Shown here piece by piece: positions 4,147 to 63,643 of a stretch of 64,000 bases of DNA. The stretch is from an uncultured Planctomycetaceae bacterium. GTDB taxonomy: Bacteria; Planctomycetota; Phycisphaerae; UBA1845; UTPLA1. A model generated the notes under the pieces. The model searched no databases. It was not told where the DNA came from and worked only from the letters and a program-made list of their open reading frames with translations. Location of the stretch: contig CAYPXR010000093.1 in NCBI GenBank assembly GCA_964414585.1, positions 10,279-74,278 of the forward strand. Reading direction: 5' to 3'. The number at the start of each line of letters is the position of its first letter. Position 1 is the first letter of the stretch. The translations under genes and the position numbers were made by a program.

Positions 4147-6867
4147 ATGAAGCTTTCGTCTGTCACGCCGTCGGACCCTCGGAGATGGGCGGTCCCCGCG
4201 TGCGTGGCCTTCGTCTTGTGGGGTTGCACCATTCTGTTGTGCGACGTTTCCGGCGCGAAGCCGGGCGAACGTTGGCCATCCTGGGTCGATCGCATTTTGG
4301 CCGTTCCGGTCGAAATGACGGACATTTCCGACCTGCGCTATTACGCCCTGCCGGTGGGGTGGGCGATACTGCTGGCCATCTGCGCATGGCAAAGGCAAGG
4401 CGTTGGCCTGGCGCCGACGCGGTCATTTCGCCAATGGTGGTTTGAAGGGTTGGCGGCGGCGACCGTGTGCTGGGCCTGCGCCTCGGCGTGGAGAAACGAG
4501 TCATGGATGCCTTCGAGGGGTTGGATCTTTGGGTTGTTCTGTGGCGTCGGATGGGCCGCGACACTGGGCCGGTGGTGTTCGCCACGGCAGGCTTTACGAG
4601 CCGTGGTGGTCGGTTCGGTGATCGCCGCCCTCGCTTCGCTTTTGTCCATGGCGCATCGCCAGTTCCTCGGTGAACGATTTTTTCAATTGCCGGTGGGACC
4701 GGTGACGCTGACGGCTTCGCTCGGCGCGTTGTGGGCCTCCATCGCCACCGTCTGGCTGGCCGGCGCGCTGGCGCAGAAAGGGTCCACGCCCTCCCTGCCA
4801 AACCGAGGAAAAAAAACACCGTCGACCAAGGCGAACGCTCCAGCTCCTCAAGAACTCGCTTCGTCATCGCCCGTTGCGTTTTTGTGGGGCATCTTCGTGG
4901 CGATCCTTTCGATCGTCATGCTGGCGGCCGCGGGCCGTCGAGGCGCGACGCTCGGCCTCCTGGCGGCATGGGCCGTCGTGGGCGGTTTTGTGGGATGGAA
5001 TCGATTTCGTTCAAAGGGCATGCGGGCGCTGCTGATCGCCGGTGCATTGGTCGTTTTGAGCGCAGCCGGTTGGTACGTCAGGGGTCAGGCGCAAAGTACC
5101 GTCGAGACGACGAGTCTCCCGCTGAAGGTTCGGTCCATTTATTGGGAGACGATGCTGCAACGAATTCCCGATTCGCCCGTCTGGGGTTTCGGTCCGGATC
5201 AGTTCGTCATGAAGGCGACGACGGCGCTCGCCCACCGCCGTGCGGAAGAGCCGAGGGTTTTGCACGGAATCGTCGACTTCGACGGCCACAACGAATGGCT
5301 CCAGGAGACCTTCGAGTTGGGCATTCCGGGCGCCTTGTTGTACATGTCCCTTCCGCTGGGGGCCTTGATTGTGGCGTGGCGGCGATGGCGTCATGCGGAG
5401 GGCGCCCGGCGCGTGTGGTTGCTCGCCCTGATGGCGGGACTGGTGGAACTTTGCGTGTCCGAACTCAGCAGCATCAACCTGCGTCATCCGATTCTCCAGG
5501 GATGGTATTGGACGCTGTTGGGATTGACGGTGGCGCTGGGACGGCACGATGGCGCTGACGCCGTCGCCCGTGAAGGATGGACTCCACGAATGGGCACAGG
5601 GCGAATCGCCCGACGGACCCTTTGCGGCGTGGCGTCGCTGTTGCTCCTGGCCGTGGTGGGAATGGATCTCCGCGCGGCGCTTCATCATGCCAGGGGCCGC
5701 GCGCTGCTGACTCACGACGACGCCCAGGCCACGAGCGAACTTGAAAAGGCCACGGGCCGCTTCGGAGTGTCGCGATGGCTGTCCACGCGAAACTATCTTG
5801 GAAATTCGATTTCGAGCCGCCTGCGCGCCGAATTCAACGCGGACGCAAACGGATCGGCCTCAAGCAGACCGGCATCGTCCATGACGGAATCGGATGCGCT
5901 GCGCCGCCGCGCGCTCGAAGTCTGGGGCGAACTCTACCGGGCATGCCCCGGTTACCTGGATAACGGCTTTCGTTTTGCCGAAGCGCAGGTGATGGCCGGA
6001 GATCGCGCGAACGCCAGGAATACATTGCAAAAATGCCTGAAAGAATTGGACCCCTACGATCGAAACACCAACGTCCTCCTGATTCAGATCGGTGAACTCG
6101 ATTCTGCGTCGAAGCTGGAGTGTGTTCGCCGGGCGCTTCGCCAGGAGATGTGGGAGCCGGTGTTGCTTTCGACGGCGACGGACGCCTTGCGGGACCCCGA
6201 GGTGGCCGCGATGTGGCCGCGGCGCGTGGAGCAGGCGCTGAGTGATGTGGCACGGACCACTGAAACGGACTGGCAAGACCCGTTGGCGCCGGAAACGCTG
6301 CGCATCGAAGCCCTTCGATTGCTCGGTGTGGGCGATCGCGCGGGGGCCGACCGCGTCGAGCGGGCAGCGGCCTTGGCCTACGATCGGCTCGCGCGGAGCC
6401 ACTCCACCGTCCGCCGAAAATGGCCCGCCGAGGCGGACGCCTGGTTCTGGTCGGCGAAGCTCCTTTTCGATCTTGATCCGGCAAGATATCAGGAAATTTT
6501 CTCTCGAATCGAAAAAGCGGAATTCTTTGTCGCCGACGGACTGCCGACCAGCGCGGTTCCTGATGCGAAACCGATGGCGGAACTCGTCGGTGGACGGGTG
6601 ATCCCGATGGAGTTTCCCGAAAAGCTCTCGCCGCTTTGGCGATTCTCGGCCATGATGCACATGGCCATGAAAAAGGAAGAAGGCCAGATCAGCCTGCGGG
6701 TCACCTGGAGTCTCCCGGAGGACCAACGATCGTCGAATCAGTCCTTCGCCGAGCTGGGAAGACTGGCGATGGAGCTGGTGCAGGTATATCAACTACTACC
6801 TGAATCGAGCCGGCCCCCGAGCTATCCGGAACTAATCAGACTGGCGAATCAATTCGCCCCACGCTAG
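4147..6867 (+). CDS. large polytopic membrane protein with O-antigen ligase/polymerase-like (Wzy_C) core and C-terminal helical-repeat domain
   Basis: 906 aa with many TM segments. GFGPDQF and DGHNEWLQETFELGIPG (HNxxLQ motif typical of WaaL/PilO/PglL-type Wzy_C proteins). About 400 aa of TPR-like C-terminus. Starts 10 nt after pilT. Confidence 0.7.
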   Translation: MKLSSVTPSDPRRWAVPACVAFVLWGCTILLCDVSGAKPGERWPSWVDRILAVPVEMTDISDLRYYALPVGWAILLAICAWQRQGVGLAPTRSFRQWWFEGLAAATVCWACASAWRNESWMPSRGWIFGLFCGVGWAATLGRWCSPRQALRAVVVGSVIAALASLLSMAHRQFLGERFFQLPVGPVTLTASLGALWASIATVWLAGALAQKGSTPSLPNRGKKTPSTKANAPAPQELASSSPVAFLWGIFVAILSIVMLAAAGRRGATLGLLAAWAVVGGFVGWNRFRSKGMRALLIAGALVVLSAAGWYVRGQAQSTVETTSLPLKVRSIYWETMLQRIPDSPVWGFGPDQFVMKATTALAHRRAEEPRVLHGIVDFDGHNEWLQETFELGIPGALLYMSLPLGALIVAWRRWRHAEGARRVWLLALMAGLVELCVSELSSINLRHPILQGWYWTLLGLTVALGRHDGADAVAREGWTPRMGTGRIARRTLCGVASLLLLAVVGMDLRAALHHARGRALLTHDDAQATSELEKATGRFGVSRWLSTRNYLGNSISSRLRAEFNADANGSASSRPASSMTESDALRRRALEVWGELYRACPGYLDNGFRFAEAQVMAGDRANARNTLQKCLKELDPYDRNTNVLLIQIGELDSASKLECVRRALRQEMWEPVLLSTATDALRDPEVAAMWPRRVEQALSDVARTTETDWQDPLAPETLRIEALRLLGVGDRAGADRVERAAALAYDRLARSHSTVRRKWPAEADAWFWSAKLLFDLDPARYQEIFSRIEKAEFFVADGLPTSAVPDAKPMAELVGGRVIPMEFPEKLSPLWRFSAMMHMAMKKEEGQISLRVTWSLPEDQRSSNQSFAELGRLAMELVQVYQLLPESSRPPSYPELIRLANQFAPR

Positions 6868-6873
6868 AGGCTG

Positions 6874-9576
6874 GTGTCACGCTTCATGCGAAAACGATCG
6901 AATGCCAACAAGCCGGTTCCCAGGCCGGCCGCGAAATCAGCACCGATCACCGGTGGCATGGGATTCGTGCCGATCCTCGTCGGCCTGGTACTCTTCGCCG
7001 GCACACTGCTGCTGTGCGACGTGTATTCCCCCGGCGTCGCGGCGCCGGACCGCTGGCCTTGGTGGATCGATCGAATTCTGGCGTTGCCGATCCCGCTGAC
7101 CGCGCCGTCGGATTTGCGGACCTATTCAATTCCGGTCGGACTGGCCACGCTACTGATTTGTTTTGTGTTCCGGCGCCAACGAATCCGGACCGGCGGGCTC
7201 CCGCGAACGTGGTGGTTTGAAACGGTCGCGGCGGCGACGGTGCTCTGGGCCTGTGTATCGGCGTGGAGGAATGACGTCTGGGATCGAACCGGCGGATGGA
7301 TCTTCGCTCTGGCGTGCGGCGCGGCGTGGGCGGCGGTGCTGGCACGGGCCTTCAAACCCCGCGTCGTGGGTTGGACGCTGATTCTCGGTTCCATCGTCGC
7401 AGTGCTCGGAGCAGGCTTGTCGCTGCTTCATCGAAATGTCCTGGGAGCGCCTTACTTTCAACTTCCCGTGGGGCCAATTACGCTGACGGCATCTCTGGGA
7501 GCCCTGTGGAGCGCAATGGCCCTGGCGTGGCTCGTTGCCGCTCTATTGGACAAGCCGGTAGCGACTCCGCCCGGCGTCAAGGTTGATAACGTCGATCGAA
7601 AATCGGGGCCATCCATCACCGGGCTCATCTTTGCCTTGATAACGGCCCTCATCTCGCTGACGCTTTTTTGGGCGGCGGGTCGTCGCGGCGCAGGGCTGGG
7701 TTTGGCGGCGGGGCTTGGCGTAGTGACCTTCGCTGCTTGTTGGAGGCGATTCACAAGTTCCAAAGTTCGTGCACTTCTCATCGCGATGACCGCAACGTCT
7801 CTGGTGGCGGTCGCCGTTTTCGTCCGATCGCAGATTCAAAGCACCGAGCGGGTCGTGAGCGGGCCTTTGAAAATACGGTTGATCTATTGGGAAAAGATGC
7901 TGGAGACGATCCGCCAGGCTCCGGTGTTCGGCGTCGGACCGGACCAATTTGTCACAACGATGACGACCGCCCTCGCGCGCCGACGGGCCGAAGAGCCCCG
8001 AGTGGTTCATGGCGTTGTGGACTACGAAGGACACAACGAATGGCTTCAGGCGGTCTATGAATTGGGCGTTCCCGGTGGCTTGTTGTATCTCACATTGCCG
8101 GTCGGTGTGGTCATTCTTGGATGGCGCGCCTGGCGCCGAGCCCGGGGAATCCATCGCCTTGTGCTTCCCGCGTTGTTGGCGGGGATCGTGACCGTCATCG
8201 TTGCTGAAGCGAGCAGCATCAACTTGCGGCATCCGATCCTTCAGGCCTGGTATTGGACGTTGCTCGGGCTGACGCTCGCGGCGAGTCGCGAGGAGCGAGA
8301 AGATGCGCCGCCCATCTCCTCGACAAGGACGGCGTGGCTTCGCGTGGCCGGTGTCCTGGCGGCTTTGTTCGTACTGTTCGTCGTCGCCGTGGATGTTCGG
8401 GCGGCGCTGCACCATGCCAGGGGTCGGAGCCTGATGAATCGCGATGACATCGAGGCTTCGAAGGAGCTGATCCAGGCCAGGGGAAGGCTCGGCACCGCGC
8501 AATGGTTGGCGACCAGGTCCGACCTGGGAACCTCGCAGGCCAACGTCCTGCGCCAATACCGGAAGCCGTTAACCTCTCAGCCGGCCCAGTCGCCGGCGGA
8601 TGTCGACATGCGCAACCGTTGGGGCGAGAAGGCGATGATGACTTGGTGGGAAATTCTGTCGGCCAGCCCTGGATATTCGGATACGGGATTCCGACTGGCT
8701 GAAGCCCAGACCAATGCCAACGACATCCCCAGCGCGTTGGTGACGCTCGAAATCTATCTCCGCGACGCCAATCCTTACGATGTTCAGGCCAACGTCCTGT
8801 GGGCCAGTATTGCCAACCGCCCGCCCATGGAAAACCTCGAAGCGGTCTGTCGTGGGCTTCGCAGCGGGGCGCTCAACAAGTGGCTCGGCTATCACGCCGC
8901 GCGATCCCTGGGAACGGCCCAGGCCATCGATCAATGGCCCGCGCGCGTCGAGGACGCGCGGAAAGACGTTGCCCGGCCGTCGGAAACCGATTGGAAAAAC
9001 CCGCTCGCGCCGGAGGTGCTTCGGCTGGAGGCCTTCCGATTGGCGTCGTTGAAGCAATTTGCCGAGGCGGCTGAGGTACAGATGTTGGCGGCCGAGGCTT
9101 ATCGTCAATTGGACGCGTCGCGCTCTCCCGTCGCGAGAATCATGCCGGCCATGGCCGACGCCTGGTACCTGGCGGCGTGGGCGACCTTCGTTTCCGATCC
9201 GACCAGGTTCGACGCCGCTTTCAAGATGATGCTCGAAGCGGAGCGGTCGGTACAACTGGGGATGGCCGGCGACGACGACGGGAACAAGAAGGCGGAGTTG
9301 AAGGATGTCGTCCTGGCCGAGCGGACGGACGAACTCCTTCAGTTGATGCGCTTTTCAGCGAAGATGCACCTGATGGCGCAGCGTGATCTGCGCCCGGTCG
9401 TAAACCGAATCGTCTGGAGCCTGGGACAACCGTCCCCGTCGCAGGCGACGATCGACGCCGAGTTGGGACGTATCGCCGCCGAGTTGGTCAAGACCATGGG
9501 CGAATTGCCGATGGAACGACGGCCCTCAGAGTTTGCCAGGATCGTGGATGTGGCGCGGCGCTATTTGCCTCAATGA
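6874..9576 (+). CDS. paralog of 4147..6867 (O-antigen ligase-like membrane protein with helical C-terminal domain)
   Basis: 900 aa, collinear with the upstream gene. Shared blocks include LLLCDV...DRWPWWIDRILA, WACxSAWRN, FQLPVGPxTLTASLGALW, GxGPDQFV, EGHNEWLQ and RAALHHARGR. Start is GTG 6874 or ATG 6886. Confidence 0.7.
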   Translation: MSRFMRKRSNANKPVPRPAAKSAPITGGMGFVPILVGLVLFAGTLLLCDVYSPGVAAPDRWPWWIDRILALPIPLTAPSDLRTYSIPVGLATLLICFVFRRQRIRTGGLPRTWWFETVAAATVLWACVSAWRNDVWDRTGGWIFALACGAAWAAVLARAFKPRVVGWTLILGSIVAVLGAGLSLLHRNVLGAPYFQLPVGPITLTASLGALWSAMALAWLVAALLDKPVATPPGVKVDNVDRKSGPSITGLIFALITALISLTLFWAAGRRGAGLGLAAGLGVVTFAACWRRFTSSKVRALLIAMTATSLVAVAVFVRSQIQSTERVVSGPLKIRLIYWEKMLETIRQAPVFGVGPDQFVTTMTTALARRRAEEPRVVHGVVDYEGHNEWLQAVYELGVPGGLLYLTLPVGVVILGWRAWRRARGIHRLVLPALLAGIVTVIVAEASSINLRHPILQAWYWTLLGLTLAASREEREDAPPISSTRTAWLRVAGVLAALFVLFVVAVDVRAALHHARGRSLMNRDDIEASKELIQARGRLGTAQWLATRSDLGTSQANVLRQYRKPLTSQPAQSPADVDMRNRWGEKAMMTWWEILSASPGYSDTGFRLAEAQTNANDIPSALVTLEIYLRDANPYDVQANVLWASIANRPPMENLEAVCRGLRSGALNKWLGYHAARSLGTAQAIDQWPARVEDARKDVARPSETDWKNPLAPEVLRLEAFRLASLKQFAEAAEVQMLAAEAYRQLDASRSPVARIMPAMADAWYLAAWATFVSDPTRFDAAFKMMLEAERSVQLGMAGDDDGNKKAELKDVVLAERTDELLQLMRFSAKMHLMAQRDLRPVVNRIVWSLGQPSPSQATIDAELGRIAAELVKTMGELPMERRPSEFARIVDVARRYLPQ

Positions 9577-40603: not shown

Positions 40604-42154
40604 ATGGCCCGACAGACCATCGCCATTCTGGACTTCGGCGCGCAGTACGTTCAGCTCATCGCCCGGCGGGTGCGCGAGAACCAGGTCCACTCGCTGATTT
40701 TCGCGCCGGACGTGTCGCCGGATCAACTCAAGAAGGAGCGCGTCGTCGGCATCATCCTCAGCGGCGGGCCGGCCAGCTCGTACGCGGCGCAAGCGCCCAA
40801 ACCGAACAGCGGCATCTTTGAACTGGGCCTGCCGGTCCTCGGAATCTGCTATGGCATGCAGGTCGCTTGCCAGCAACTAGGGGCGAAGATCGTTGCCGCC
40901 GGTCATCGCGAGTTCGGCCGGACGAAACTGGAAGTCACCGCCGACGATCCGCTTTTGGCGCATATTCCCAAGGCGACGACCGTCTGGATGTCGCACGGCG
41001 ATATTGTCAGCGGCTTCGGCGAAGCCTTCATCACGCTCGCCAAGACGACGAACTGTCCCCATGCGATCGTTCGCCATCGCCAGCGGCCGCTGTGGGGCGT
41101 GCAGTTCCACCCCGAAGTGACGCATACGCCCGAGGGCGGGCAGATCCTCCGCAACTTTCTCTACGACATCTGCAAGGCCGACGGGTCATGGAACGCCGGT
41201 TCGATCATCGACCAATCCGTGGAAAACATCCGCACGAAGGTCCGCCCCGGTTCGCAGGTCATTTGCGGCCTCTCCGGCGGCGTGGACTCGGCGGTGACGG
41301 CGGCGCTCGTCCATCGTGCCGTGCCCGAGCGACTCATCTGCATCTTTGTCGATAACGGCCTATTGAGAGCCAACGAGCGGGATCGCGTCGAGGCGATCTT
41401 CCGTGGTCATTTCAAACTGGAGCTTCGCGTCGCCGACGCCGCCGAACGATTCCTGAAAAGGCTTGCCGGTGTGACCGACCCGCAGGAAAAGCGGATTCGC
41501 ATCGGCCACGAATTCATCGAGGTCTTCAAGGAGGAGGCCAAGCGAATCCCCAACGCGCATTATCTTGCGCAGGGCACGCTCTATCCGGACGTGATCGAAT
41601 CCGGCCATTCCGTCGGCGGGACGACCGCCAACATCAAGCTGCATCACAACGTCGGCGGCCTTCCGGCGGAACTCGGCTTTGAATTGATTGAGCCGCTGCG
41701 AGACTTGTTCAAGGACGAGGCCCGCGTCATTGGCGAAGTCCTCGGTCTTCCCGAAGAAATGATCTGGCGGCACCCATTCCCCGGGCCAGGTCTGGCCGTG
41801 CGGATCATCGGCGAGGTGACGCACGAGCGGTGTAACCTATTGCGTCAGGCCGATCAGATTATCACGGAAGAAATCATCGCGTCTGGTTGGCATCGCAAGG
41901 TCGCGCAGGCCTTCGGCGTCCTGATGCCCGTCTCCAGCGTCGGCGTCATGGGCGACGGCCGGGCCTACGCCGGTCAGCAGGCCATCGCCGTCCGGCTCGT
42001 CGAATCGACCGATTTCATGACCGCCGATTGGGTGCACATCGATCCCGGCATTCTCTCGCGCGTCTCAACTCGAATTACCAACGAAGTGCCCGGCATCAAT
42101 CGCGTGGTCTACGACATCACCAGCAAGCCCCCCGGCACGATCGAGTGGGAATGA
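40604..42154 (+). CDS. guaA: GMP synthase (glutamine-hydrolysing)
   Basis: GATase domain ILDFGAQY...GICYGMQ...HPE. PP-loop GLSGGVDS. C-terminal dimerisation domain ending PPGTIEWE. Confidence 0.95.
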   Translation: MARQTIAILDFGAQYVQLIARRVRENQVHSLIFAPDVSPDQLKKERVVGIILSGGPASSYAAQAPKPNSGIFELGLPVLGICYGMQVACQQLGAKIVAAGHREFGRTKLEVTADDPLLAHIPKATTVWMSHGDIVSGFGEAFITLAKTTNCPHAIVRHRQRPLWGVQFHPEVTHTPEGGQILRNFLYDICKADGSWNAGSIIDQSVENIRTKVRPGSQVICGLSGGVDSAVTAALVHRAVPERLICIFVDNGLLRANERDRVEAIFRGHFKLELRVADAAERFLKRLAGVTDPQEKRIRIGHEFIEVFKEEAKRIPNAHYLAQGTLYPDVIESGHSVGGTTANIKLHHNVGGLPAELGFELIEPLRDLFKDEARVIGEVLGLPEEMIWRHPFPGPGLAVRIIGEVTHERCNLLRQADQIITEEIIASGWHRKVAQAFGVLMPVSSVGVMGDGRAYAGQQAIAVRLVESTDFMTADWVHIDPGILSRVSTRITNEVPGINRVVYDITSKPPGTIEWE

Positions 42155-42157
42155 ATC

Positions 42158-42613
42158 ATGATCTACTCGGCAGGCTGCGAATACGGCATTCTCGCCCTGA
42201 TGAGCATCGCTCGACAGGCGCCGGCCGGAAAGTTTCTACTCTTGAAAAAAATCGTTGGAGGCGACGACCTTCCGTCTCAATATGTTGGGAAGATCCTGCA
42301 AACGCTCGTGCGGGAGGGGATTCTGATGTCCGCCAAGGGCCGCGGCGGCGGCTTTGCCCTTCAGCGTCCGCCGGAAAAAACCCTCTTGCGGGAAATTGTT
42401 GACGCCATAGACGGACCGCAGCGGATCAAGCGGTGCATTCTCGGTTTTTCTCCCTGCGAGAGCTCGCAGCCCTGCCCCCAACACGACGACTGGATGCAGG
42501 TCCGCGAGCAGATCGAACGCCTGCTGGACCGCACGACGCTGGCCGATCTGGTCCGGGCTCAAAATCACAAACTCGCCCGTGCCGGTCGGTCCTTGCCGCG
42601 CCGCAAGCGATGA
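42158..42613 (+). CDS. Rrf2-family transcriptional regulator (IscR/NsrR-like, 3-Cys cluster)
   Basis: wHTH SQYVGKILQTLVREGILMSAKGRGGGFAL. Cys triad CILGFSPCESSQPCP. Confidence 0.85.
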   Translation: MIYSAGCEYGILALMSIARQAPAGKFLLLKKIVGGDDLPSQYVGKILQTLVREGILMSAKGRGGGFALQRPPEKTLLREIVDAIDGPQRIKRCILGFSPCESSQPCPQHDDWMQVREQIERLLDRTTLADLVRAQNHKLARAGRSLPRRKR

Positions 42614-42661
42614 TTGTTCGCCGCGCTTGAAGAACGGCGATTCCCCGAGCATCATGCCCGC

Positions 42662-44323
42662 ATGACCGGCGAAAAAGTCATCCGAGCGCGCTTCGCCCCG
42701 TCGCCGACCGGCTATCTGCACGTCGGTGGGGCGAGGACGGCGCTGTTCAATTGGCTCTTCTGCCGGCGGAATGGCGGCAAGTTCATCCTGCGCATCGAAG
42801 ACACGGACATCCTCCGCAACATCGAGGGCGCGGAGCAAAAACTGATCGAGGACCTCCGCTGGCTGAACATCGATTACGACGAAGGACCGGACATCGGCGG
42901 GCCGCTCGGGCCGTATCGCCAAAGCGAGCGGCGCGATCTGTATGACGCCGCGGCGAAAAAGCTGCTCGACTCTGGCGACGCCTACTACGCCTTCGACACG
43001 CCCGAGGAACTGGAGGCGATGCGCCGCGAGGCGACCGCGAAGAAGGAATCCTTCAAATATCCCCGGCCCGATCCGCTGCCAACCGAGGCCGACGCCGGGC
43101 GCGCCCGGAAGGAAGGCCGTCCCGTCGTCGTCCGCTTCAAGACGCCCAACGAACCGATCACCGTCCGCGACGAAATCCTCGGCGACGTCACCTTCGGGGC
43201 CGGGGAGATCGAAGACCTCGTCATCGTGAAATCCAACGGCTGGCCGACCTATCACTTCGCCGTGGTCGTGGACGACGCGGGCATGCAGATCACCCACGTC
43301 CTTCGCGCACAGGAGCACCTGATGAACACGCCCAAGCACGTGTTCATGCAACGGGCCCTCGGCTACGCGCCGCCGCGCTACGCGCACCTGCCGCTCGTCT
43401 TCAACATCGACGGTACGAAGATGTCCAAACGCGACAAGCACAAGGTGGTGCGGACCGCCGCGAAGAATCTCATCAAGCAGAACAAATGGACGGCCGACGA
43501 TGTCGCCCGCATCGCGGAGTGCAAGGAGGCATCCGCCAAGGCCTGGCTCGACAAGGCCGACACCGAGCTGGACATGACGCAGGTGGGGCGGCTCGCGACG
43601 TCCGCCGGCGTCGAGATTCCCGAAATCGACGTTCACGATTTTCGGGTCTCCGGCTACCTGTCCGATGCCTTGGTGAACTTCATAGCGCTAATCGGTTGGT
43701 CGCCGAAAGACAACCGAGAGATGTTGACTCGTGACGAGATGATCGCCGCTTTCAGTCTGGAGGGCATTAACAAGACGGCAGGCCGCTTCGACCGAGATAA
43801 GCTCAAAGCGATGAATAAAGACTATGTTGCGAGTAGAAAACCGGAGGAACTGGTGCCGCCATTCGTTGATTGGTCGGTCCTCAATGATTCGGTAATGAAA
43901 AACAATTCTTCTGGAATAAATTCAGCAGTGATCAGTTCTTGTTTTGGGTTCCGCACTTTTCAAGATATCGATGAAAAAGCCGGAGTGCTTTTCAGGCCAG
44001 ATGACAAAGTGCAATACGACCCCAAGTCGGTCAAGGACGTGCTTGAGAAGAAGGAGGGGTCCGGCTACGCGATGCTGGAGCGGCTGCTGCCATTGCTCGA
44101 GTCGCTGGAGCCGTGGTCCGTGGAGCGGATCGACGCGCTGGTCAAGGAAATCTGCGAACAAACCGGTGCCAAGACGAACGACGTCGCCCAACCCCTTCGC
44201 GTCGCCCTGACCGGTCGGACGATCAGCCCGGGGATCGGGGAGACGTTGGCCCTTTTGGGCAAGACCAGGACCGCTAATCGGATTCGTCGGTGTCTGCAAC
44301 TACGCGCGGGTCTTTCCGATTGA
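42662..44323 (+). CDS. gltX: glutamate--tRNA ligase
   Basis: RFAPSPTGYLHVGGARTALFNW (HIGH-type) and KMSKRD. Contains an AT-rich in-frame patch at 43861..43980. Confidence 0.95.
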   Translation: MTGEKVIRARFAPSPTGYLHVGGARTALFNWLFCRRNGGKFILRIEDTDILRNIEGAEQKLIEDLRWLNIDYDEGPDIGGPLGPYRQSERRDLYDAAAKKLLDSGDAYYAFDTPEELEAMRREATAKKESFKYPRPDPLPTEADAGRARKEGRPVVVRFKTPNEPITVRDEILGDVTFGAGEIEDLVIVKSNGWPTYHFAVVVDDAGMQITHVLRAQEHLMNTPKHVFMQRALGYAPPRYAHLPLVFNIDGTKMSKRDKHKVVRTAAKNLIKQNKWTADDVARIAECKEASAKAWLDKADTELDMTQVGRLATSAGVEIPEIDVHDFRVSGYLSDALVNFIALIGWSPKDNREMLTRDEMIAAFSLEGINKTAGRFDRDKLKAMNKDYVASRKPEELVPPFVDWSVLNDSVMKNNSSGINSAVISSCFGFRTFQDIDEKAGVLFRPDDKVQYDPKSVKDVLEKKEGSGYAMLERLLPLLESLEPWSVERIDALVKEICEQTGAKTNDVAQPLRVALTGRTISPGIGETLALLGKTRTANRIRRCLQLRAGLSD

Positions 44324-45756: not shown

Positions 45757-45890
45757 TCCTGCATAATACCGGATGGCTGTTAGGGACGCTTGAAATTAGG
45801 ACAGTATCGAAATGGCCGTCCCCCGTAGAGGACCGCCATTCGTTACGCTATAGTGGCTCCATGATTGAGCCTTTCAGGCGGGATTGAGAT

Positions 45891-46562
45891 ATGGGTAAAT
45901 TTACTGGCACGGCGCTCGTCATTTTATTGACCTTCGGCTGTTCATCGCGAGACCAGATGAACATGTTCATGCGGCAGGTCGATGCCGCGCCTCCTGAAAA
46001 GCGCCCGCCGAATTGGGAACACACCAAAAAATTAATGCAACGGACCGCCCCGGCCGTCGGGCAAGCGGCCCCGGACTTCAGCCTGGCCGCCGTTGATGGA
46101 AAATCATCGCTGACGATGAGCCGGCACCACGGCGATCGGCCGCTCGTGCTCATCTTCGGCAGCTTCACCTGACCGCCTTTTCGGCGCCAGTCTGGCGCCC
46201 TCGAGCAGATGTACCAGACCTATCGCGACAAAGCGGCCTTTCTCTTCGTGTACGTCCGCGAGGCCCATCCCAGCGACGAGTGGCAGATGGGCAGCAACGT
46301 GAAGGAGGGCGTCGTCTTCGCACAGCCGAAGACCGCCGAGGCCCGCCGCGATGTGGCTCGGCAATGTTGCACGAAGCTCTCGTTGACGATGCCGAGCGTC
46401 GTCGATGGCATCGACAATCATGTGGACGATCTTTACGCCGCCTGGCCCGAGCGAATCTTCATCGTCGGCAAGGACGGCCGCATCGCCTACGCCGGCGAGC
46501 AGGGACCCTTCGGTTTCGCGCCAAAGGAGGCGGAGGCCTGGTTAAAAAAGAATACGCGTTGA
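45891..46562 (+). CDS. iodothyronine-deiodinase-like thioredoxin-fold protein, probable selenoprotein (TGA 46170-46172 read as Sec)
   Basis: Two same-frame ORFs joined across a single TGA: ...IFGSFT-U-PPFRRQ...FLFVYVREAHPSDEWQ...YAAWPERIFIVGKDGRIAYAGEQGPFGF. Signal peptide MGKFTGTALVILLTFGC. Confidence 0.75.
46183..46199 (+). promoter_or_regulatory. SECIS-like hairpin downstream of in-frame UGA
   Basis: GGCGCC-AGUCU-GGCGCC, a perfect 6-bp stem starting 10 nt after the UGA. The apical loop lies 17-21 nt from the UGA and contains GU. Confidence 0.5.
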
Positions 46563-46575
46563 TCGGAGGTGTGCT

Positions 46576-46934
46576 ATGCGACTCCACATTCCCGCGTACA
46601 TCGTGTTGACGATCGCGGCGGCCTCGGCATGGGGCCAGTCCTTCAACCTTGCTGTCGGGCCACCCGCAAACCAGCCCTCGTCGAGCAAAGGCGCTGATGC
46701 CAGGCCAACCGGCCGTCAAGAGCTGCGCGAGCAGCGATGAAGAGCCTGGCCACCCGCATTACATCATCGGCGGGGCTTGGCCCGGCCATCGGCCCTTTCG
46801 TGAACGCCCTGGTCAATGCCCCGGCCTACTACACGTCGGAACCGACGTGCCGCATCGATAATGCCGCCATCAACGGCGACATTCAAATCACCAACGCCGA
46901 TGTCCCCGGCTTCATTGCCTTGCTCGGGCTTTAG
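46576..46934 (+). pseudogene. possible frameshifted remnant of a small secreted dockerin-tail protein (or two coupled mini-ORFs)
   Basis: Frame A: MRLHIPAYIVLTIAAASAWGQSFNLAVGPP... (signal peptide), stopping at 46738. Frame B, 46737..46934, ends ...CRIDNAAINGDIQITNADVPGFIALLGL (dockerin-like). ATGA junction. Confidence 0.3.
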
Positions 46935-47074
46935 CCTCCGGCCATTTTCCACAATGCGCAGCCCTATTATCATGATTTCACCACGCGGTCTGGAATCCGC
47001 CGGAAATCCAATATGGGCGGATTTGAATCGATGCCGGTTAGACCTGTCAGATGAAGAAGGATAGAATAATTGTT

Positions 47075-47296
47075 ATGACGCGACTTGAATCCATCTACCA
47101 CGACGCCTTGGCGCTTCCTAAATCGGAGCGTGAGGAGCTCGTGCGCTTGCTTCTCTCGCAACTGCCGGCCACAGAGAACGATGACGCCGGAGTTAGTGAT
47201 CGGGGTCTCGCGGCGTGGACGGAATCATCGCAAGGTGAGGATTGGACGGAGTTTTATCCGGCAGAACTCGTTAACGGCCGAAAGGGCAAGCCGTGA
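47075..47296 (+). CDS. addiction-module antitoxin-like protein (TIGR02574-type N-terminus)
   Basis: MTRLESIYHDALALPKSEREELVRLLLSQL. TAGAAT lies 7 nt upstream of ATG 47075, so the mRNA may be leaderless. ORF-track start 47051 is also possible. Stop overlaps the toxin start (GTGA). Confidence 0.6.
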   Translation: MTRLESIYHDALALPKSEREELVRLLLSQLPATENDDAGVSDRGLAAWTESSQGEDWTEFYPAELVNGRKGKP

Positions 47297-47610
47297 CGCG
47301 CGGCGAAGTCTGGTGGGCGGAATTGGCGGGTGCGGCGGGATTTCGTCCTGTTGTCGTCATTTCGCGCGGGGAAAACCTCGACCGACGAAAGAACATCACG
47401 ATCGCGGAGATTACCCGCGTGGTAAGATCATTGCCGAGCGAGGTGCCGCTTTCGATGGCCGAGGGCATGCCCGCCGATTGCGTCATTAACACAGATAACA
47501 TACACACCATCCCCCGAGAGCGATTCCGGCAATACATTTTAGGTTTATCTACTGAACAAGTATTTTCGCTTGAGCGTGCCCTACGCCATTCGCTGGGTTT
47601 GGAATGGTGA
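47293..47610 (+). CDS. MazF/PemK-family toxin (endoribonuclease)
   Basis: RGEVWWAEL...RPVVVIS...ITIAEITRVVRSLPSEVPL...ADCVINTDNIHTIPRERF fits the PemK/MazF pattern. Confidence 0.8.
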   Translation: MTRGEVWWAELAGAAGFRPVVVISRGENLDRRKNITIAEITRVVRSLPSEVPLSMAEGMPADCVINTDNIHTIPRERFRQYILGLSTEQVFSLERALRHSLGLEW

Positions 47611-61593: not shown

Positions 61594-63516
61594 ATGTCAA
61601 AGATCATCGGAATTGACCTGGGAACGACGAACTCGGTCGTGGCCGTCATGGAAGGCGGGCAGCCCAAGGTACTGACCAACGCCATGGGCGCGCGGACCAC
61701 GCCGTCCGTCGTCGGCTTCACGGATAAAGGCGAGCGGCTCGTCGGCCAGATCGCCAAGCACCAGCAAGTCACCAACCCGCGCAACACCGTCTTCTCCATC
61801 AAGCGCTTCATGGGCCGCCGCCACAGCGAAGTCGGCTCGGAAGAAAAGCTCGTTCCCTACGAAGTCGTCGGCGGCTCCGAAGAACTCGTCAAGGTCAAGG
61901 TTCGCGACAAGGAATTCACCCCGCCGGAAGTCTCCGCGATGGTCCTCCAGGATCTCAAGAAGACCGCGGAAGACTATCTTGGCGAGAAAGTCACCGCGGC
62001 GGTCATCACCGTCCCGGCCTACTTCAACGACTCGCAGCGCAAGGCGACGCAGGAAGCGGGCATCATCGCCGGCTTCGACGTTAAGCGCGTCCTGCCCGAG
62101 CCGACGGCCGCGGCCCTCGCCTACGGCATGGACAAGAAAAAGGGCGGCAAGATCGCCGTCTTCGACCTGGGCGGCGGCACCTTCGACATCTCCATCCTCG
62201 ACGTCGGTGAAGGCGTCTTCGAAACGCTTTCCATCAACGGCGACACCCATCTGGGCGGTGATGATTATGACCAGGTGCTCATCGATTACGTCGCCGAGGA
62301 GTTTCGCAAGCAGTACGGCGTCGATCTCCGCAAGGACCCCATGGCCCATCAGCGCCTCAAGGAAGGCTGCGAAAAGGCCAAGTGCGAACTCTCCACCTCG
62401 ATGGAGGCGACGATCAATCTGCCGTTCATCACCGCCGACGCGAGCGGCCCCAAGCACCTGAACCAGACGATCACCCGCGCAAAGTTCGAGCAGGTCACCG
62501 AGAAGCTGACCGAACGCTGCCGAGGACCGGTGCTTAAGGCGCTGTCCGACGCGAAGCTCTCGCCCAAGGACATCAACGAGTGCATTCTGGTCGGCGGTTC
62601 GACGCGCATGCCCGCCGTGCAGCGGATGTGCCAGGAAATCTTCGGCAAGGAGCCGAACAAGAGCGTCAACCCGGACGAGGCCGTCGGCATCGGCGCGGCC
62701 ATCCAGGCCGGCATCATCGGCGGCGACGTGAAGGACATCCTCGTCCTCGACGTCACGCCGCTGTCGCTGGGCGTCGAGACGCTCGGCGGCGTCATGACGA
62801 CGATGATTCCGCGCAACACGACGATCCCCACGAGCAAGAAAGAGGTCTATTCGACCGCCGCCGACAGCCAGAGCGAAGTGACGATCCACGTCCTGCAAGG
62901 CGAGCGGCAGATGGCCGTCGACAACCGCACGCTCGGCCGCTTCAACCTCGCCGGCATCCCGCCGGCCCCGCGCGGCGTGCCGCAGATCGAAGTGACCTTC
63001 GACATCGACGCCAACGGCATCCTCCACGTCTCCGCCAAGGACATGGGCACCGGAAAAGAGCAGAAGATCAAGATCGAAGGCTCGTCCGGTCTCTCCGAGG
63101 CGGAAGTCGAGAAGATGCGCAAGGAAGCCGAGTCCCACGCCGAGGACGACAAGAAGAAGCGCGAGCTGATCGACGCCAAGAACCAGGCCGATCAGGTCGT
63201 CTACCAGACCGAAAAGACGCTCAAGGAGCACGGCGACAAGGTCCCGGCCGACGAGCGCGGCAAAGTGGAGCTGGCGATCAGCAACCTCAAGGATCGCATG
63301 AAGACCGACGACGGCCCGGCGATCAAGAAGGCGATCGAAAACGTAATGACGGCGAGCCAGGCCCTCGGCAAGATCATCTACGAAGAGGCCGCCAAAGCCG
63401 GCGGCGCCAGTGGTGCCGCACCCGGCGGCCCCGGTCCGACGCCCGGCCCCGGCGCAGCGCCGGCCGGCAAGAAGGACGATGACGTGATCGATGCTGAGTT
63501 TGAGGTGAAGAAATAG
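61594..63516 (+). CDS. dnaK: molecular chaperone DnaK (Hsp70)
   Basis: [26 protein letters not shown] and an EEVD-less C-terminus [11 protein letters not shown]. 640 aa. Confidence 0.97.
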
Positions 63517-63643
63517 CGCCGCAATCAGAGCCGCGCGGCGCGAGCCCGCGGACATGAATGTGGGTGCTCCATGAGATCGGGAATTGCCGCAGGTCCATTG
63601 GGCCGGGTCTTCAGCATTTGCGGCGTCACACTATGCTCGCGCT

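Follow-up and report, generated by a model that had tools for sequence, protein, structure and literature searches.

Prokaryotic deiodinase-like selenoproteins have been known since 2005, when four selenocysteine (Sec) and six Cys sequences were reported from the Sargasso Sea together with bacterial selenocysteine insertion sequence (SECIS) elements, and a redox function was suggested for them (Zhang, Fomenko & Gladyshev 2005; PMC1088965). The family is listed among the prokaryotic selenoproteins in reviews of 2022 and 2026, where its redox motif is tabulated as UxxC (PMC9312934, PMC13188914). Here we describe a locus at positions 45891-46562 (plus strand, as are all features within it) of a 64-kb stretch of a Phycisphaerae metagenome-assembled genome (MAG), contig CAYPXR010000093.1; this whole stretch, with a GC content of 60%, is referred to as the window. 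Judged from sequence comparisons, the locus is very probably a single gene for a deiodinase-like thioredoxin-fold protein with an in-frame UGA for the catalytic Sec. It resembles the Sargasso Sea family in its match to PF00837, in an in-frame UGA at which homologs carry Cys, and in a bacterial-type SECIS just downstream whose small apical loop contains a G, and differs in that the original sequences came from marine metagenomes. The gene thus adds a Phycisphaerae member to the known family and, because both the family and its use of Sec have been in the literature since 2005, none of our findings overturns current knowledge. One discrepancy concerns the motif. All 65 Sec forms compared here (the window gene plus 64 TGA-containing loci in other genomes) have U-[P/G]-P-[F/Y] as in animals, with no Cys at +3, whereas the published tables, with which alone the comparison was made, give UxxC; either another subfamily is meant in these tables, or their entry is inexact.

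Two open reading frames (ORFs) are listed at this place, 45891..46172 and 46209..46562. An earlier note on this DNA had claimed that they share one frame and are separated only by a TGA and 12 sense codons, and this is what the letters give: the frame runs from the ATG at 45891 to the in-frame TGA at 46170-46172, continues through 12 sense codons (46173-46208) to the ATG at 46209, with which the second ORF begins, and closes with the final stop TGA at 46560-46562. Read-through yields a complete coding sequence (CDS; 45891..46562) of 223 aa (93 aa + U + 129 aa), with blocks reading ...DRPLVLIFGSFT-U-PPFRRQSGALEQMYQTYRDKAAFLFVYVREAHPSDEWQ...WPERIFIVGKDGRIAYAGEQGPFGF..., and the deiodinase hallmark motifs that the note had quoted were all found in the translation (FGSFT-U-PPF, EAHPSDEW, WPERIFIV and GEQGPFGF in the joined product). 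This CDS is supported by the frame, by its PF00837 match and by the same architecture in 64 other species.

The Pfam search of the joined 223-aa product, proposed in that note as a check, matched T4_deiodinase (PF00837) with E=3.3e-35 and 121.9 bits (gathering cutoff 27). The match is a single stretch spanning the UGA, in which residues 54-221, the thioredoxin-fold domain at 46050..46553, are aligned to profile positions 73-236 of 237. The best solved-structure matches were mouse Dio2 (9H48, E=2.9e-25) and Dio3 (4TR3, E=2.5e-22), and both alignments with the window protein were almost gap-free, the Dio-specific insertion included. This homology to solved structures is enough to establish the fold. 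Weaker Pfam matches were obtained with the peroxiredoxin-type families AhpC-TSA (PF00578, 5.6e-9) and Redoxin (PF08534, 1.7e-6). The window protein resembles peroxiredoxins in having its nucleophile at the N-terminus of helix alpha1 with a Thr before it, and deiodinase catalysis has been described as peroxiredoxin-like (PMC11592359). Unlike them, it fits the deiodinase family better by about 26 orders of magnitude in E-value, carries the Dio insertion, and has its nucleophile in the context FGSxTUPPF rather than PxxxTxxC. The homology across the UGA is far beyond chance, and these alignments demonstrate, at the level of homology, that the two listed ORFs form one unit across it. Against the NCBIfam model NF038285 (deiodinase_rel, 'deiodinase family protein') the product scored 222.8 bits, below the curated cutoff of 250, with the match confined to model positions 174-338 of 347 and none in the first half. 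The window protein is not a full-length member of NF038285, and the unmatched first half of the model probably corresponds to that half of the long Planctomycetaceae Cys forms which carries the EF-hands.

The UGA at codon 94 (46170..46172), predicted to encode Sec, aligns with Sec170 of mouse Dio3. An exact look-up of the 117-aa downstream ORF was used to find the locus in the Logan assemblies, and the same TGA with the same flanks was present in three independent ones (SRR30163053, SRR30163055 and SRR13076500). A sequencing error, which had been named beforehand as one way for the Sec reading to fail, is very unlikely given this threefold recovery. The 95 homologs found by a protein search were either full-length Cys forms or fragments. 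The full-length homologs place Cys exactly on the UGA codon, with FGSFTCPPFR in P0001-P0005, as had been anticipated for Cys-containing relatives. The fragments are of two kinds: C-terminal ones of about 125 aa start at the first Met after the UGA position, and N-terminal ones end precisely with ...FGSWT; one homolog (P0085) lies directly 5' of a separately called PF00837 ORF. Such fragments are what gene callers would be expected to make of a Sec gene, and the suspicion that callers had split one gene in the window is borne out in its relatives, which likewise appear as N- and C-terminal pieces.

A scan of species-representative genomes recovered 80 related loci, and the homologous codon was read in each of them. 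It was TGA in 64/80 and a Cys codon (TGC/TGT) in 16/80; among the 29 nearest homologs from other genomes it was TGA in 29/29. The MAGs with TGA forms belong to Phycisphaerae and other Planctomycetota (the closest, at <=66% identity), Acidobacteriota, Thermoanaerobaculia, Armatimonadota, Gaiellales, Anaerolineae, Verrucomicrobiia and Alphaproteobacteria; going by the MAG record names, at least seven higher taxa are represented among the Sec forms. Immediately after the UGA codon, 59 of the 65 Sec forms retain the amino acids PPFRR, which rank among the best-conserved stretches of the protein; this indicates that the sequence after the TGA is translated; the C-terminal half is conserved throughout in all 65. 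The earlier note would have given up the Sec reading if homologs stopped here with nothing conserved downstream. The opposite was seen, both flanks being conserved around a codon that is TGA in most loci. Taken together, the comparative evidence for Sec is far beyond chance.

Bacterial SECIS elements are expected to have an apical loop of 3-9 nt, an upper stem of 4-16 bp, a G early in the loop (N1-G-[G/U]-N-N2 with N1/N2 paired), a spacing of 16-37 nt from the UGA to this loop, and a minimum free energy (MFE) of <=-7.5 kcal/mol (PMC13188914, Fig. 2). Ten nucleotides after the UGA, the window contains a perfect 6-bp stem GGCGCC/GGCGCC with the loop AGUCU at 46183..46199, found exactly as had been described; it occupies +14 to +30 counted from the U of the UGA, encodes R98-R99-Q100-S101-G102-A103, folds at -13.1 kcal/mol and is the centroid structure of the local fold. 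Read alternatively, an A-U pair extends the stem to 7 bp and leaves a GUC triloop, giving GGCGCC(A)/GUC/(U)GGCGCC. With 6 bp and 5 nt, or 7 bp and 3 nt, the hairpin lies within the published size ranges, the loop A-G-U-C-U, in which A and U can pair, fits the loop consensus, and the spacing of 16 nt (46173-46188, for the 5-nt loop) or 17 nt (for the triloop) falls in the allowed range at its lower bound. The energy also lies beyond the published threshold, a threshold that does not discriminate by itself, as 41% of the in-frame TGA sites in the window pass even -9 kcal/mol. The bacterial SECIS geometry claimed for this hairpin therefore agrees with all four published properties, and covariation, described below, is added to them.

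Compared with the E. coli fdhF-type SECIS and the bacterial consensus, the candidate element is similar in its position within the CDS, its start 10 nt after the UGA, its 6-7-bp stem, its loop of the N1-G-[G/U]-N-N2 type and its distance of 16-17 nt to the loop, and a sister clade has the loop GGUC. The fdhF SECIS has a bulged U in the upper stem. No such U was identified in the window hairpin, which also differs in having no conserved extended lower helix. Rfam gave no relevant match, either for the whole window in gathering mode or for 45800-46700 in E-value mode.

The relatives were more informative than the window hairpin by itself. RNAfold placed the start of a hairpin 10-16 nt after the UGA in 65/65 Sec forms, with loops such as GUC, GGC, GGUC, GGU and AGGUG and a G at loop position 1 or 2 in all 65. 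The mean energy of the 30-nt segment was -11.9 kcal/mol in Sec forms versus -4.4 kcal/mol in Cys forms (Mann-Whitney p=1.1e-9). When synonymous codons were resampled with the protein kept, the mean z was -1.84 for Sec forms (33/65 in the 5% tail) and +0.24 for Cys forms (1/16); for the window itself, -13.1 kcal/mol was observed against -7.9 expected (z=-1.8). Covariation was measured on the 37 sequences sharing the hairpin register of the window. Their 7-bp helix was paired in 93.4% of cells, versus 30-51% with the 3' arm slid, compensatory changes on both sides occurred in 6/7 stem pairs, and 0/500 shuffles reached any of the observed measures. Some of these changes alter the protein, as in Gly102->Asp (GGC->GAC), which is coupled to a synonymous change of Arg99 (CGC->CGU). 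In an Acidobacteria-type clade the segment is re-encoded as RRSVER and the 3' arm has moved by one base, giving GGCGCUC-GGUC-GAGCGCC. A covariance model built with the window left out, the kind of check that had been called for on this region, recovered 46170-46211 as its sole strong match in the 64 kb (64.7 bits, E~1e-17). As far as sequence comparison reaches, these results demonstrate that the predicted hairpin is kept by compensatory changes, some of which alter encoded amino acids, and that it is absent from the Cys forms.

Several observations weigh against the Sec reading. The hairpin of the window, taken alone, is no better than chance in GC-rich DNA: the 71-nt region folds no better than its dinucleotide shuffles (z=0.04), and 103/251 in-frame TGA sites of the window (41%) have a downstream hairpin of <=-9 kcal/mol, so that hairpin energy does not discriminate in this DNA. 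The Sec machinery is not encoded nearby, as none of selA, selB, selD and the tRNA-Sec gene (selC) was found in the 64-kb window. Because no gene of this machinery lies in the window, we can only infer that the organism decodes Sec, and the incorporation of Sec at residue 94 stands as a prediction. Cys159, the candidate resolving thiol discussed below, is missing from 18/65 Sec forms. No conserved neighbour points to a substrate or redox partner, since no neighbour family occurs in more than 5 of the 80 loci, and a literature search found no functional study of any bacterial member of the deiodinase-like family.

The searches behind these statements also yielded candidates that were set aside. 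ARAGORN detected neither a tRNA nor a tRNA-Sec in the window, and Pfam scans of 30 large ORFs revealed no SelA, SelB or SelD; ORFs of sel-like length (461, 632, 652 and 354 aa) were identified as a 2-oxoacid dehydrogenase E2 subunit, a TSP3-repeat protein, an ORF antisense to a probable dnaK, and a PilT-like ATPase. Apart from UGA94, none of the 251 scanned in-frame TGA sites, including the 103 with a hairpin, lay in a credible gene. A neighbour 'family' shared by 24 loci proved to be a spurious long minus-strand ORF, antisense to the deiodinase-like gene itself, and is most likely a by-product of high GC and codon bias.

Three other explanations of the in-frame TGA were weighed. The first holds that it is a genuine stop, leaving either a pseudogene or two small genes, one for a lipoprotein fragment of 93 aa and one for a C-terminal fragment of 117 aa, and no full-length product. 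Gene callers do annotate the split in every assembly, TGA is a normal stop in this genome, and the Sec machinery was not seen in the window. However, we judge this explanation very improbable: unlike in a decaying pseudogene, 64 species from several phyla have preserved TGA at this codon together with both halves of the protein, the 12 codons that separate it from the next ATG belong to the most conserved of all (PPFRR), the 117-aa fragment would be without the catalytic residue and without beta1/alpha1 of the fold, and the co-varying hairpin is found only where the codon is TGA.

According to the second explanation, UGA94 is read by something other than Sec, namely near-cognate Trp or Cys, Cys-tRNA(Sec) via SelB, or a lineage-specific reassignment of UGA. 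The lack of visible Sec machinery in the window speaks for it as well, and Cys can be inserted at UGA via the Sec pathway under selenium limitation. We nevertheless give this explanation only a very slight probability. UGA terminates many ordinary genes here: guaA (40604-42154), an Rrf2-family gene (42158-42613) and gltX (42614-44323) share one frame and each end with TGA, as do many other genes of the window, which excludes a reassigned code. These three also account for an apparent double-TGA read-through ORF at 40604-44323 (+), which dissolved into ordinary genes, spaced by 0-1 codons, for GMP synthase, an Rrf2-family regulator and glutamyl-tRNA synthetase. Moreover, the residue aligned with the site is Sec in animals and Cys in homologs rather than Trp or Gly, and the hairpin fits the SelB-type SECIS consensus (PMC13188914). 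The third explanation, an assembly or sequencing error for TGC/TGT in a real Cys form, would need a single base change and could point to the Cys forms that do exist (16/80 loci and P0001-P0005), but it deserves almost no credence, given the identical TGA and flanks in three independently assembled read sets, the TGA in all 29 nearest homologs from other genomes, and a SECIS hairpin in the window that the Cys forms lack.

With Sec94 as the preferred reading, the residues around it were mapped onto mouse Dio2 and Dio3 by alignment, using residue roles from PMC11592359. The active-site motif F-G-S-F-T-U-P-P-F (residues 89-97; 46155..46181) has the same SxTUPPF as both mouse enzymes, Ser91, Thr93 and Sec94 corresponding to Ser167, Thr169 and Sec170 of Dio3 before the common Pro-Pro-Phe. 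At the edge of the Dio insertion loop, E-A-H-P-S-D-E-W (residues 124-131; 46260..46283) contains Glu124, His126, Asp129 and Trp131, the equivalents of Dio3 Glu200, His202, Asp205 and Trp207; in addition, Tyr121 corresponds to Tyr197 and Glu187-Arg188 to Glu259-Arg260, and the GxGPxG[F/Y] motif is common to both. The window protein contains the entire core of Ser-x-Thr-Sec-Pro-Pro-Phe plus the Tyr/Glu/His/Trp of the loop-D edge, and among the 65 Sec forms these shared residues show a conservation of 88-100% (S91 in 65, T93 in 64, P96 in 65, F97 in 62, E124 in 64, H126 in 65 and W131 in 57). It is therefore similar to vertebrate DIO2 and DIO3 (9H48, 4TR3/4TR4) in a whole homologous catalytic domain including the Dio insertion, in an identical SxTUPPF, and in a tether to the membrane via the N-terminus, which is a prediction for the window protein.

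On the other hand, the differences from the animal enzymes are clear. Their tether is a transmembrane helix, as opposed to the lipoprotein anchor predicted here, and their SECIS is a kink-turn element in the 3'-untranslated region, as opposed to the intra-CDS bacterial type. The proton-relay His219 of Dio3 (His182 in Dio2) is replaced by Pro146 in the window protein and by Pro in 63/65 Sec forms, Phe258, the gate of the thyronine cleft, by Pro186 (65/65 Sec forms), and the substrate clamp Arg275 (Lys in Dio2) by Gln at position 204, where the clade has Pro or Gln. Cys168 and Cys239 of Dio3 are absent from the window protein. From these alignments, thyroid hormones are not anticipated as its substrate. 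In the other direction, Cys159-Cys160 (46365..46370) includes a family-specific residue, as position 159 is Leu in mouse Dio2 and Dio3, and is Cys in 47/65 Sec forms and 12/16 Cys forms and invariant among the closest homologs. Cys159 is a candidate resolving thiol, and because 18/65 Sec forms do without it, the resolving step proposed below cannot be universal.

At the N-terminus, MGKFTGTALVILLTFGC, a basic K3 is followed by a hydrophobic core (residues 4-13) and a lipobox L13-T14-F15-G16-C17, in line with signal peptidase II substrates, whose lipobox [LVI..][ASTG..][GAS]-C falls in the first 15-35 residues. By this sequence pattern, 45891..45941 encodes a signal peptide ending in the lipobox L-T-F-G-C, with Cys17 (45939-45941) predicted as the lipidated first mature residue. 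The exported, signal- or lipobox-like start that the earlier note had seen thus finds its lipobox at Cys17, by pattern match only. The lipobox regular expression hit TFGC at residue 14 and found [LVAIM][AGS]GC boxes in about 19 of the closest Planctomycetota homologs, most of which carry lipoboxes such as LAGC, VAGC or ALGC. An Acidobacteria clade has an N-terminal hydrophobic anchor, and other homologs have cleavable-looking signal peptides. The family thus seems usually to be extracytoplasmic, either secreted or membrane-tethered.

Two side observations concern the same end of the protein and its domain partners. The SRR30163053 contig (L001:147-230 versus window 45850-45930) is near-identical from about codon 13 onwards, with two A/G differences. 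Upstream of that point, over the first 12 codons as well as the 5' flank, it is unrelated, which suggests a recombination breakpoint or a strain variant within the signal peptide. In separate lineages, and in Cys and Sec forms alike, the deiodinase-like domain is joined to calcium-binding EF-hand (DxDxDG) modules, which are located N-terminally in loci L055-L066 and L076/L077 and C-terminally in L045/L053/L054. These fusions suggest calcium-dependent regulation or anchoring outside the cell.

We propose the following mechanism for the predicted selenoprotein. SelB·GTP·Sec-tRNA(Sec) would bind the hairpin at 46183-46199 and, taking the place of release factor 2, bring Sec to UGA94. The pre-protein would be exported, cleaved and lipidated at Cys17, so that the enzyme would be tethered to the membrane and face the periplasm. 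The Sec94 selenolate at the start of helix alpha1 would act as the nucleophile, aided by the Ser91, Thr93, Tyr121, Glu124, His126 and Trp131 network common to the animal deiodinases, and could carry out a two-electron reduction of an extracytoplasmic substrate, either an oxidant or an organohalide. The oxidised selenium (Se-X/Se-OH) would be resolved via a selenenyl-sulfide, plausibly with Cys159, and a thiol partner would then reduce it. The reaction may be a reductive dehalogenation, with a halogenated phenolic as substrate, or else a peroxide or disulfide may be reduced. Since the equivalents of Dio3 His219, Phe258 and Arg275 are replaced, we lean towards a substrate other than a thyronine, on which the enzyme would have a redox or dehalogenating role. 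A more specific idea, which we regard as unlikely, is that the Sec U-P-P-F clade comprises selenium-dependent reductive dehalogenases of natural halogenated phenolics with the Se-halogen chemistry of the thyroid deiodinases. If this were true, the clade, which is widespread in soil and freshwater Planctomycetota and Acidobacteriota, would represent a bacterial functional ancestor of the animal deiodinases and a second, cobalamin-independent route of bacterial reductive dehalogenation.

Automatic annotation has split this selenoprotein gene into two 'hypothetical' ORFs, and the same split occurs in dozens of MAGs. Joining the halves corrects the annotation and restores an enzyme with its catalytic residue. 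The survey suggests that the family is not confined to marine metagenomes and that it occurs mostly in the Sec form in species-representative genomes (64/80). Since the animal catalytic network is kept and the thyronine-binding residues are lacking, the family is a reasonable target for the study of ancestral deiodinase chemistry, and the window gene offers an entry point to this widespread family of enzymes.

The surroundings of the gene add little to its interpretation. Its immediate neighbours received no family assignment in the Pfam and NCBIfam scans, and with no conserved neighbour across the 80 loci the gene stands alone, its context giving no clue to substrate or reductant. After the selenoprotein stop, a GGAGG box lies 6 nt before an ATG at 46576, which opens a 54-aa ORF with a signal-peptide-like start (MRLHIPAYIVLTIAAASAWGQ...). 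It is followed in another frame by a 65-aa ORF (46737-46934, plus strand) that is annotated by gene callers, and together the ORFs at 46563-46934 may represent a frameshifted or a small secreted protein. Just downstream, overlapping ORFs of 81 and 105 aa at 47051-47610 (+) are a predicted MazEF/PemIK-type toxin-antitoxin pair, the second being a PF02452 PemK toxin on an identical Logan contig; NCBIfam gave no match for either.

Elsewhere, the window is ordinary chromosomal DNA, and the genes recognised in it include a MiaB-like radical SAM enzyme, PilT-like ATPases, O-antigen-ligase-like proteins, a Ser/Thr kinase, guaA, gltX, a GlnRS-type synthetase, an M16 peptidase, aroB and a dnaK-sized ORF (61594-63516). 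A minus-strand ORF at 61597-63555 matched PF10712 ('NAD-specific glutamate dehydrogenase') with E=2.7e-158 and is exactly antisense to this 640-aa plus-strand ORF. PF10712 is an artefact family, translated antisense to Hsp70 genes, and the real gene at 61594-63516 (+) is probably dnaK. Exact look-ups with the products of this ORF and of the one at 1254-2960 gave no recorded match. Near the start of the window, two tandem paralogous ORFs of about 900 aa (4147-6867 and 6874-9576, plus strand) each contain a Wzy_C (O-antigen ligase) domain, whose relative position is the same in both.

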